Assembly: GCA_951406725.2 (NCBI GenBank) | Contig: OX597835.1 | Span: forward strand, 3,286,001-3,350,000 | Length of the DNA: 64,000 nt | Reading direction: 5' to 3' | Origin: Octopus vulgaris | Taxonomy: Eukaryota | Shown here: piece by piece, positions 33,132 through 36,564 of the stretch | Layout: each line of letters starts with the position of its first letter | How positions within the stretch are numbered: the stretch's first letter is position 1 | The notes under the pieces: generated by a model | Told to the model about the DNA's origin: nothing | Databases searched by the model: none | Seen by the model: only the letters and a program-made list of their open reading frames with translations | Translations under genes and position numbers: made by a program

Positions 33132-33267
33132 TTAGGCCTTATATTTAACACACGAGCAATAATCTCTGGTTCGTATACACTCGTAACCGGGGCAGCATAC
33201 ACACCTTTTATTTGCTCCTTGACCCGCACATCCTCTTGTTAAACATGCACTTCTCTTAATCCTTTCA
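33132..33267 (-). CDS. Cys-rich peptide gene copy 2, mature-peptide exon: (S)ERIKR|SACLTRGCAGQGANKRCVCCPGYECIRTRDYCSCVKYKA*
   Basis: Read manually (below the ORF-track cutoff). Acceptor ttttgtatttacag|T GAA AGG ATT AAG AGA, furin-type RIKR, 8 Cys in the same spacing, TAA stop. Confidence 0.88.
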
Positions 33268-34614
33268 CTGTAAATACAAAATATAGTAGAGAATACAAAA
33301 TATTATTAAACCGGCGTTGCTCGTGTTACATGCAATTGAAGAATTAGACTTTTCTGTTATATTTTCTGTAATGAACTGGAATACCTATGATTCGAATTTC
33401 TTCAAAATTGTAGATAAGCGTTGTTTCCCTCTTTACACACCCTAAAAAAATTGTAATCGTGCTACATGTATCCCATACTACTGAATTTTATGCGCATATT
33501 CCAAAATTCCAGTCTTATCGAATCTGTTAAAAGGATTTTGCTCCTGAAAAATGAAGATCATGGAGCTCTAAAATGTGAGAGTTAAGGCCCCTGTTGGGCG
33601 TGGGTGTCTTAATGTCAGGAAGAGAAGTTGCATTGTTGAGAATCTTTTTAACTTGGGTCTTATATCTATTGTTTGAATTTCTTTGAAATAGGAAATATAT
33701 GTTCACTGGGTTTGTAAAAGATAGTAAAGCTACAGGAAACGAAAAGACGAATGATCACAATAAGCAGTCAGCTACCCTACCCTAGTCGTTACCACTTCCA
33801 AAGTAGGCTTTCTCACCATCCAGGTGACAGGCACAGCCGTTAGATGCATTATGGATCTATAGCAATTGGAAGGGCGTGACCCAACTGAAATAAACATTAA
33901 CAACTGTGTGACGTGAGGGCTAAGGAGAAATGAAAATGTCACCTGTGGAGATGGCAAATGACCACTACACTGATACGTAAGTGGGCAGAATAAATTTGCA
34001 ATCTATAAACGTCTTTGAATAACAAGTCACTCATCTGGGAAGGCCTTGAAATCAGTGTTACCATCTGGGGACTATGTGTGACCCAGTGATAATAAAAAGA
34101 CTGAAAGAAGGTCTGCAATCAAATAACTTTACTCAACACTTTGCAACTGAAGCAGTGGAGGCAAAGATGCCTGTCATTTACTTGACAATTTATGCAGCAC
34201 ATTACAGAAATAACAATGTAAGTGTATGTGAAAGCAAACTGTTACACTTTTGCACCATTGAATTACAAATAATGCTCATCTTTTATGCTCTGGTAACCCT
34301 ACAGCTTCTAAGAGCACAACTGTATTCGTTTTTGCTTAGATAAAATGACAAAATTGTGGGTGTTAAGTCCCCATGGAGGGGTCTTTCTAACTTGTAAGAA
34401 GGTGAAATTTTTAAAAAATTACTTCATTTGTGTCTAATATCTACGGTTAAAATTTTATCAACAGGAAAAATATATGAATTGTCATGGAGGTTATGGCCCT
34501 TATGCATAGAATATAATATCCAAATTTCATAAAGATCCATTCAGTACTTTTGACCTCGTTTTGGATCATAATAGACATGACTAAAATTTGGGAGTTAAGG
34601 CCGCCATTAGGGTG

Positions 34615-34713
<99 letters not shown>

Positions 34714-36149
34714 TACACACACACAAAGATAAATTGATAGATACAACTGAGTGGGCAAACAAAAATATGAGACACAGCCTAGTGCTTTTTTATGTTGATA
34801 AGCCTGGTACTTATTCTATTAGTTTGTTCTTGTGAAACCAATAAGTTATAGTGATGTAAATAAATGAACAGCAGTTGTGAAGCAGTGATGAGGGTGAAAC
34901 ACAGAGAGAAAGACAGACACATACACTTACATATATACATACATATATATAAGATTGATTTGTTTCAGTTCCTGTCTACGAAATCCATATATATACATAC
35001 ACACACATACACAAAGATAAATTGGTAGATACAACTGGGCAAAAAAAAATATGAGACACTGCATAGTCGGTTTTTTTATTTTGATATTCCTGGTACTTAT
35101 TCTATCAGTTTCTTCTGACACCAGTAAGTTATGGGGATTTAAATAAACGAACACTAGTTGTGAAGCAGTGATGAGGGAGAAACGCAAAGACACACTCATA
35201 GACTTACATTTATATATACATATATATATACAATTCATTTCTTTCAGTTTCTGTCTACAAAATCCACTGACAAGGCTTTGGTTGGTCTGAGGCTATAGCA
35301 GAAGACACATGCCAAGTTACCACACAGTGGGACTGAACTGAGGACCATGTGTTTTGGAACCAAGATTGTTACCACACACCCACACCTGCACCTATGTATG
35401 TGTGTGTGTGTGTGTGGAAGGTCACATTGACACACAACGAAGCCGGCAGCCCAGAATGAAAGCACAGAGTTTACAGAAAGCTATTGGCTCATTTCTTGCC
35501 CAAACATTATGCACAAACTGAATGCTGCCACATTCCTTCACTACCATTTCGTGTCCAACGACATGATGACAGATGTACAGGAAGGTGAAAAGTGGCGAAT
35601 GTGGGGATGGCCGGAACAGATTTTCAGAAACAAACCTCAACTGTTTGAAGTGAACGAAAGAAAAACCGTTGGAAACTTGCAACAGTATCGCTTGATTGTG
35701 GACATTCTATTTCCCCATTATATCCTATTACTTTTGAAGACATCACACATAGGATCAACAGCTACCAAAAAATATCAAGGTTCTACCGCCCTATGCGACA
35801 CGACATTGTCGCCAACACAAGAGAAACAATGCCATTCCGGTAGTAAGATTGTCCTGGAATGTATATAGTGAAACCCTGTTGTTACATACATACATAGACA
35901 TCAACGAAACGAATGCTGGTGGAATATTAACATCAGAATATCTGTCAATGTAAAAATAACTGGTCGGATAACATAACTTGAAGCAAGCAAGAAAATGAAA
36001 AAACTGTCATAGAGATCTCCGGTCTTGCTCGCATGAATATCTCTTTGAAAACCAAAGAGGAGGATGGTAACACTGGACAACTGTTGCAACGCTTCAGCTT
36101 CTGTTGGGTTGTCCGGAATGTTCGTGCCGATTTTTAAAGGAAAGAAAAA

Positions 36150-36420
36150 GGTCAATAAATACTTGCCCATTACATTTTTAATCAACCAAATATGAACCAT
36201 TTTGTTTCACAATGATCTCCATCTTTCATTTAATTTGAAAATACCCTCTTCCCAGAATTGAAGTGGTTTCATGGCAAAGAATTCATCAAGGTATCCTTTT
36301 ACGTCACCCAAGGAATTGAAATTTTTACCATTAAGACTATTCTGCAGGGACCTAAATAAGTGAAAATCCGAAGGAGCAATATCTGGTGAATATGCAGCCG
36401 AGCTGCAGCAATTTTTGTCT
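36150..36420 (-). mobile_element. Mariner transposase fragment (duplicate)
   Basis: AYSPDIAPSDFHLFRSLQNSL. Confidence 0.85.
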
Positions 36421-36515
36421 GATTCCCAAAGCATCAAGTGCCGAAAATGAACTTTCTTATCTTGCCAATACTAAATTAATTACATTTGTATGAGACGTAC
36501 ATATGTTGTTCTTAC

Positions 36516-36564
36516 CTTTCCTTTTTTCTACTCAAACCTGTCTCTTGATGGAAGGGAGCGACAT
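36516..36564 (-). CDS. Cys-rich peptide gene copy 2, propeptide exon (49 bp): (N)VAPFHQETGLSRKKE(S)
   Basis: ctcttttag|AT...AG|gtaaga; phase 1/phase 2. Confidence 0.82.

Follow-up and report, generated by a model that had tools for sequence, protein, structure and literature searches.

Why do the coding exons of three neighbouring gene copies differ so much when the introns around them are nearly identical, and what do such genes encode? The question is raised by 64,000 nucleotides of the Octopus vulgaris genome (2.8 Gb), hereafter the window (C22:3286001-3350000), which hold three copies of a gene for a small cysteine-rich precursor. The copies belong to a real, undescribed and positively selected octopus family of about 40 genes, which genome searches place mostly on one contig. 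Its precursors carry a signal peptide, a propeptide that mostly ends in a KR site, and an eight-cysteine, knottin-like domain. Each gene has four exons, of which the first is the 5' untranslated region (UTR), the second encodes the signal peptide (phase 1), the third the propeptide (phase 2), and the last both the KR site and the cysteine domain. Conotoxins and mussel CRP-I proteins show the same kind of evolutionary pattern; the new part is a predicted membrane tether with repeated loss.

Divergence of the three copies

Over the 39 codons that follow the KR site, copies 1 and 2 differ at 18 residues and copies 1 and 3 at 8, exactly as counted in an earlier note made from the sequence alone, and copies 2 and 3 differ at 21. 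In nucleotides, the mature regions mismatch at 28/117, 18/117 and 36/117 positions for copies 1/2, 1/3 and 2/3 (15-31%), and intron 3, with microsatellites masked, at 93/3075, 101/2878 and 61/2861 (3.0, 3.5 and 2.1%). The introns, which had been judged by eye to be more than about 95% identical, are thus that similar, and the proposed excess of exon over intron divergence is present in 3/3 pairs (Fisher P 3.6e-16, 4.2e-7 and 7e-28, that is, about 4e-7 or below throughout). Changes of two or three bases per codon, also noted before, occur in 6 of the 21 differing codons of copies 1 and 2 and in 7 of the 10 of copies 1 and 3. The 3' halves of the propeptides differ as quoted (IGFRRVNM, TGLSRKKE and TGLSEMIR), and the signal exons of copies 2 and 3 are identical.

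The divergence peak covers only the cysteine domain of about 130 nt and not the whole exon. A mature peptide of 39 residues is found in copy 2 only; the frames of copies 1 and 3 extend 26 codons beyond it, and this tail, encoded in the same exon, differs between them at 0/81 nt and among the four tailed close copies at 0-3 of 81 nt. Intron 3 is invariant over its final 50 nt across the five close copies.

The eight cysteine codons, described earlier as fixed, are the same in 3/3 copies; as a signal this identity is uninformative, because the copies are so young that the probability of all eight staying unchanged, estimated from the intron C<->T rate, is 0.84 (0.79 for five copies). Protection of cysteine codons was ruled out: across the family, the 8 cysteine columns have switched between TGT and TGC 16-17 times (2.1 per column), and an average C/T column of the flanks has undergone 1.25 C<->T changes. 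The codons are position-biased across the family, yet they switch no slower than the flanks.

Gene conversion in the introns

Use of the introns as a neutral baseline, which the earlier note had proposed, is invalid. In a set of five copies, 58% of the pairs of informative sites conflict, and since these incompatibilities cluster in tracts (0/5000 permutations as extreme, with the same result from intron sites alone), the introns are mosaics of gene conversion tracts. The domain has a synonymous tree length of 0.24-0.32, 3-4 times the 0.072 of the intron. The ratio of nonsynonymous distance (dN) to intron distance, which is 5-23 for the three window copies, therefore overstates selection about 3-4 fold. 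Special conservation of the introns was ruled out, as intergenic DNA of the copy 1/copy 2 duplication is 1.0-2.3% different and intron 3 is 3.0% different. The genes illustrate two points cleanly: exons evolving faster than introns is partly an effect of conversion, and fixed cysteine codons need no special mechanism.

Selection on the inter-cysteine loops

Codon models were fitted with our own GY94 maximum-likelihood code on IQ-TREE trees. Likelihood ratio test (LRT) statistics for M1a against M2a are 22.1 for the five close copies (dN/dS ratio, omega, 8.9), 19.5 for seven copies, 37.5 for cluster A (8 sequences) and 54.2 for cluster C (14 sequences), and M8a against M8 is concordant. In all sets M2a assigns omega of 4.2-13 to 63-77% of codons. 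Changes outside cysteine codons fall on codon positions 1/2/3 as 177/178/97 (P 2e-8), and as 34/28/16 (P 0.009) in the five close copies, where adjacent differences join positions 1 and 2 72 times versus 20 times across codon borders. Neutral simulations with recombination gave 1/30 false positives. Tree length per codon is 37 in the domain (40 sequences), 5.5 in the tail (29) and 1.9 in the signal peptide (34), and the domain has a low transition bias (kappa 0.6-1.4 versus about 2.3 in introns and tail). The diversifying selection suggested earlier is thus supported by site models in three subfamilies and by codon-position bias; adding more paralogs, the check that had been called for, leaves omega above 1 in the loops, and in the signal peptide it does not differ from 1. 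Taken alone, selection for new amino acids on the cysteine domain is highly probable.

The family and its cysteine patterns

Genome searches returned 36 signal-exon matches and 38 tail matches, all inside the census. The fetched loci hold 44 last exons, namely 42 plus L071 (seven cysteines) and a frameshifted second exon in L065; eight of 50 candidate last exons were discarded as microsatellite frames. Alignment A1 comprises 40 of the 43 open last exons, excluding two identical duplicates and L071. The genes lie in four clusters on C22 (2.46-2.61, 3.27-3.39, 7.55-7.73 and 15.89-15.92 Mb) and at one C4 site. Propeptide exons have four different lengths and keep the frame in 34/34 examined, which together with the spliced transcript of copy 2 (below) supports the earlier view that these are functional genes. 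The signal peptide is near-invariant across the family, and the cysteine domains are mostly cationic.

The spider-type pattern C-C-CC-CxC-CxC occurs in 35 of the 42 last exons. The other seven, including copies 1, 2 and 3, lack the sixth cysteine and have a new one two residues before the CC, and none of the 42 has both of these cysteines or neither. Because the seven form a single clade on the flank tree, the swap is one coupled event that keeps the cysteine count even; it likely rewires the fourth disulfide. Two members have seven cysteines: one in L040 (4558-4689, L040a), with the first changed to Trp and also a weak AAG acceptor, and L071, which has lost the second. In cluster A (L059, L057, L060 and L058) the CxC..CxC loop reads C-x-C-R-F-F, which we take to resemble the active loop of agouti-related protein, probably by coincidence.

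At L040, L041, L045, L047 with L072, L065, and copy 3 with L073 (C22:3350774), two or three tandem last exons stand behind a single signal and propeptide exon, mostly each with its own tail and 3' UTR block; possibly they are alternative terminal exons, or orphan partial duplicates. The sister genes L043 and L044 have a signal-exon donor TT instead of GT, with the remaining exons open. L054 and L067 are signal exons with no same-strand propeptide or last exon within the 8.7 kb examined downstream.

A profile search gave 7 matches among 1.84 billion representatives, all of them Octopus proteins named from O. bimaculoides or O. vulgaris, and the O. vulgaris protein models include stretches identical to fetched loci. 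Database records of the family are uncharacterized or hypothetical only. We found no description of it in the literature, where subscription papers are mostly beyond coverage, nor any paper on the five O. bimaculoides locus identifiers and one accession searched.

A hydrophobic tail and its losses

Copies 1 and 3 and most paralogs read past the domain into about 30 further residues, which form a polar linker followed by small residues and a hydrophobic stretch to the C-terminus. By the rule of at least 22 residues after the last cysteine and an 11-residue hydropathy peak of at least 2.0 at the C-terminus, the tail is present in 35/43 last exons and also in 5/5 O. bimaculoides RefSeq models (XP_052831635.1, XP_052831762.1, XP_052831640.1, XP_052831777.1 and XP_052831638.1). 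AlphaFold2 predicts it as a helix (residues 44-69). The signal for a glycosylphosphatidylinositol (GPI) anchor is laid out as a signal peptide plus a terminal hydrophobic tail with no cytoplasmic part, and its omega site is a small residue 17-31 residues from the end. The signal exons encode, as judged by eye, a hydrophobic leader of 18-21 residues, and the terminal stretch has no cytoplasmic domain behind it in any of the 35 tailed exons or five models. Candidate omega sites occur in 34/35 tails under a permissive rule without a chance control; in clusters A and B there is N-N/T/A-G at -20. The 35 tailed last exons have no conserved basic cleavage site before the tail. Because of this layout, the tail is on balance probably a GPI-anchor signal.

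An intron after the eight-cysteine domain, which the gap in copy 2 had first suggested, was ruled out, because the frame is open in 35/43 last exons, there is no conserved donor, the RefSeq models read through, and three deletions differ in their breakpoints. Eight last exons are tailless, and the losses arose independently six times: by three deletions that reach the distal 3' UTR (copy 2; L048 with L052; L070), one stop-bearing insertion (L040a with L042) and two frameshifts (L041c and L045a). Copy 2 lost its tail through a 1-kb deletion, which is not an assembly fault, because the junction occurs in contigs of X1 and X3, coded sequencing runs from two studies. The distal 3' UTR block (window 32900-33134 and paralogs) outlasts all three tail deletions and is 93-99% identical across the 3.3 and 15.9 Mb clusters; it is possibly a regulatory or polyadenylation element.

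Gene structure in the window

Copies 1 and 2 are two direct copies of a unit of 25-30 kb, and copy 3 lies in an inverted partial copy of it, with the gene itself intact. Copies 1 and 2 are on the minus strand (last exons 3418-3205 and 33267-33132) and copy 3 is on the plus strand (61449-61662). The features are as follows.

38319..38407, minus: copy 2 exon 1, 5' UTR, true 5' end not fixed; joined to exon 2 across a GT..AG intron in an X2 contig
37383..37453, minus: copy 2 exon 2, signal peptide, ATG at 37446, phase-1 donor
36516..36564, minus: copy 2 exon 3, propeptide, 49 nt, phase-2 donor
33268..36515, minus: copy 2 intron 3, 2-3% diverged from paralogs, a mosaic of conversion tracts
33132..33267, minus: coding part of copy 2 last exon, with RIKR site, eight-cysteine domain (33245-33150) and stop at the tail deletion of about 1 kb
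32900..33131, minus: copy 2 distal 3' UTR block, family-wide, AATAAA at 33055
12078..12111, minus: copy 1 signal-exon remnant, its 5' part including the ATG overwritten by satellite-like sequence
6781..11182: 45-bp satellite, about 98 units, expanded within copy 1 intron 2
6635..6683, minus: copy 1 propeptide exon
3301..3418, minus: copy 1 last exon, KR site and eight-cysteine domain
3205..3300, minus: copy 1 C-terminal tail, 31 codons and stop, GPI-signal-like
57553..57623, plus: copy 3 signal exon, ATG at 57560
58393..58441, plus: copy 3 propeptide exon
61449..61566, plus: copy 3 last exon, KR site and eight-cysteine domain
61567..61662, plus: copy 3 C-terminal tail and stop, the last 81 nt the same DNA as in copy 1

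Copy 2 is transcribed and spliced, because contigs carry its exon joints across GT..AG introns. A 341-nt contig from one of four runs (X2) connects 38407-38319, 37453-37383 and 36564-36516 with 0 mismatches, and the junction of propeptide and last exon is present in two of the four (X1 and X2), so that the last exon is supported by this splice and, in X1 and X3, by the deletion junction. None of the runs is recorded as RNA, and the splice joints are themselves the evidence for transcripts; the runs are coded, and contig depth cannot rank expression.

In window 6781-12500 the 45-bp satellite has 1-2 units in copies 2 and 3 and about 98 in copy 1, and patches of it overwrite upstream intron and signal-exon sequence; the region upstream of the copy 1 signal exon has 115 satellite 12-mers versus 0 in copies 2 and 3. 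In the assembly used here, satellite-like sequence stands in place of the start of the copy 1 signal exon, either genuinely or through misassembly, and the patches may stem from true conversion or from faulty polishing. Window 36104-36463, part of intron 3 and present in copies 1 and 3 too, is a high-copy repeat that contigs of 4/4 runs cover very deeply; by its motif it is a putative mariner transposase remnant. Window 30000-30480 has higher GC and, read by eye, resembles the 3' end of a LINE reverse transcriptase.

Fold and comparison with known systems

The core spacing C-C-CC-C-C of inhibitor cystine knots (ICKs) is found in alignment A1, and from cysteine spacing and weak sequence matches a knottin fold is likely. 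In a sequence search of PDB, all ten matches at E<=1 are short cysteine-rich peptides (spider toxins and tachystatin A; best E 0.069), and the same search with a 13-member alignment of the ancestral type gave 0 at E<=0.1. No Pfam match reached E<=0.001 for any of 40 sequences, with Toxin_9 in 2/40 and Toxin_7 in 1/40 at E 0.03-0.04. A knottin is defined by knotted I-IV, II-V and III-VI disulfides and a beta-hairpin fold; two AlphaFold2 models of low confidence (pLDDT about 62) have a C-terminal hairpin, every ESM Atlas match was under 0.9, and homolog searches from the last exon of copy 2 alone were unproductive.

The spider-type eight-cysteine ICKs (purotoxin-1, delta-palutoxins, agatoxins) and tachystatin A, the top PDB matches, share C-C-CC-CxC-CxC with 35/42 octopus last exons; unlike these they are secreted and untailed, and the window subgroup has CxCC without the sixth cysteine. 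Conotoxins are alike in their conserved signal, hypervariable mature region and low transition bias in the domain, and unlike in lacking the hydrophobic tail; no sequence similarity was found. Among conotoxin frameworks, XV is C-C-CC-C-C-C-C and XIII is C-C-C-CC-C-C-C. To our knowledge, natural knottins are thought of as secreted, and we found no tethered molluscan knottin in the literature.

MgCRP-I of Mytilus galloprovincialis (PMC4558851) is likewise a molluscan multigene family of unassigned function with a conserved prepro region. It also has four exons (5' UTR, signal, pro, and cysteine domain with 3' UTR) with phase-1 then phase-2 introns, a KR site mostly in the last exon, a cationic, positively selected cysteine domain and position-specific cysteine codons, and it showed no toxicity or antimicrobial activity. 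The mussel proteins have six cysteines and a short C-terminal extension, whereas the octopus ones have eight cysteines and a hydrophobic tail of 30 residues. With eight cysteines and longer loops the octopus family does not fit the MgCRP-I array C(X3-6)C(X1-7)CC(X3-4)C(X3-5)C, and no Mytilus protein is among the matches of the last-exon profile, the MgCRP-I prepro region itself not being directly compared. Ly6/uPAR proteins (PMC10421932) combine a domain rich in disulfides with a membrane-anchoring region at the C-terminus, repeatedly lost to give secreted forms; snake three-finger toxins derive from them, the anchor having been lost before the toxin radiation. They differ in fold and phylum, and in the octopus the members predicted to be anchored are hypervariable and the majority of the family. 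A 2026 preprint (10.64898/2026.02.02.703354) reports 27 cephalopod salivary superfamilies of unknown function; the words "knot", "disulfide" and "GPI" are absent from its main text, and its sequence file could hold the family.

What the peptides may do

The family may well consist of proteins with loops under selection, most members being GPI-tethered ligands for surface defence or recognition. The signal peptide would send the precursor into the endoplasmic reticulum, the tail would be cut off and swapped for GPI, a convertase would cleave at KR, and the disulfide-locked domain would present its variable loops outward. Tandem duplication would supply copies; gene conversion would homogenise the introns, signal, tail and UTR, and selection would at the same time hold the loop sequences apart. 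Copies without a tail, copy 2 among them, would be secreted. The loops would chase a fast-changing partner, with microbes or parasites at an epithelium as the first-choice guess.

Several results weigh against this explanation. Fold searches with the AlphaFold2 models gave nothing at E<=0.001 or Z>=2. No RNA-type contig crosses from domain to tail at L038 (X1-X3 only), a blank that is uninformative. Selection on tail hydrophobicity is not significant (codon positions 1/2/3 = 19/13/10, P 0.19-0.44), L040a and L042 retain intact tail DNA that lies beyond the stop and is not translated, and the tails of copies 1 and 3, L038 and L039 terminate in a frameshifted, charged stretch. Omega is 1.37 in the tail (29 of the 40 A1 last exons) and 1.22 in the signal, and because neither differs from 1, their sameness could be due to conversion alone. 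Neutral double-hit simulations gave 11/35 false positives (maximum LRT 21.8, none at 22.1), and with double hits modelled the window subgroup drops to P 0.025 (five copies) and 0.054 (seven).

Absence of selection, with the pattern made by local hypermutation, double-base mutation or old domain alleles among converted flanks, is already disfavoured and hardly probable. It would suit the long synonymous tree of the domain, the much better fit of double-hit models, and the near identity of copies 1 and 3 for 27 codons after KR ahead of a differing patch; however, the changes respect the reading frame, clusters A and C remain significant when double hits are modelled (P 1e-5 and 4e-9), and cysteine third positions within the domain are unchanged in the five close copies. 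That the family is a venom of salivary-gland channel toxins of conotoxin or spider type, its tail a cleaved C-terminal propeptide or retained only in non-venom ancestors, is unlikely. The signal-pro-KR-Cys layout, near-invariant signal peptide, positive selection, spider-type CxC..CxC with weak spider-toxin matches, and the 27 salivary superfamilies would agree with a venom, but the tail has no conserved basic site ahead of it, selection is equally strong in clusters where almost every member has a tail (A 8/8, C 12/14 tested), MgCRP-I pairs the same layout and selection with no reported toxicity, and we found no paper on cephalopod venom knottins. The toxin-gene analogy of the earlier note is thus not shown, most members, including copies 1 and 3, having a GPI-signal-like tail that secreted toxins lack.

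Two further roles would keep the tether of the preferred explanation and change the partner of the loops. Gamete recognition, by GPI-tethered ligands on sperm, spermatophore or egg that were diversified by sexual conflict or species recognition, has a precedent in GPI-linked fertilisation proteins and agrees with a lineage-restricted, positively selected and tailed family; it is quite unlikely, as diversification of about 40 paralogs within a single genome suits a repertoire more than a lock and key. Tethered modulators of endogenous channels or receptors, in neurons or suckers for instance, would resemble the prototoxins lynx1/Ly6, whose design likewise joins a toxin-like domain to an anchor (PMC10421932); this is very unlikely, since a conserved self target would hardly account for an omega of 4-13 across the majority of loop codons.

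Significance

We tentatively suggest that about 35 GPI-tethered, positively selected knottins form a natural octopus repertoire whose anchor was shed at least six times, freeing peptides. It is possible, with similar reserve, that the repertoire was diversified by conversion, tandem alternative last exons and a disulfide swap, and, by analogy, that it replays on a knottin scaffold the route from Ly6 to three-finger toxins, perhaps caught in progress. The family offers about 40 new disulfide-rich peptides that are open to pharmacology. If the tail is a GPI signal, its recent tailed and tailless sister genes would allow a test of whether anchor loss gives rise to secreted effectors, as has been proposed for snake three-finger toxins.
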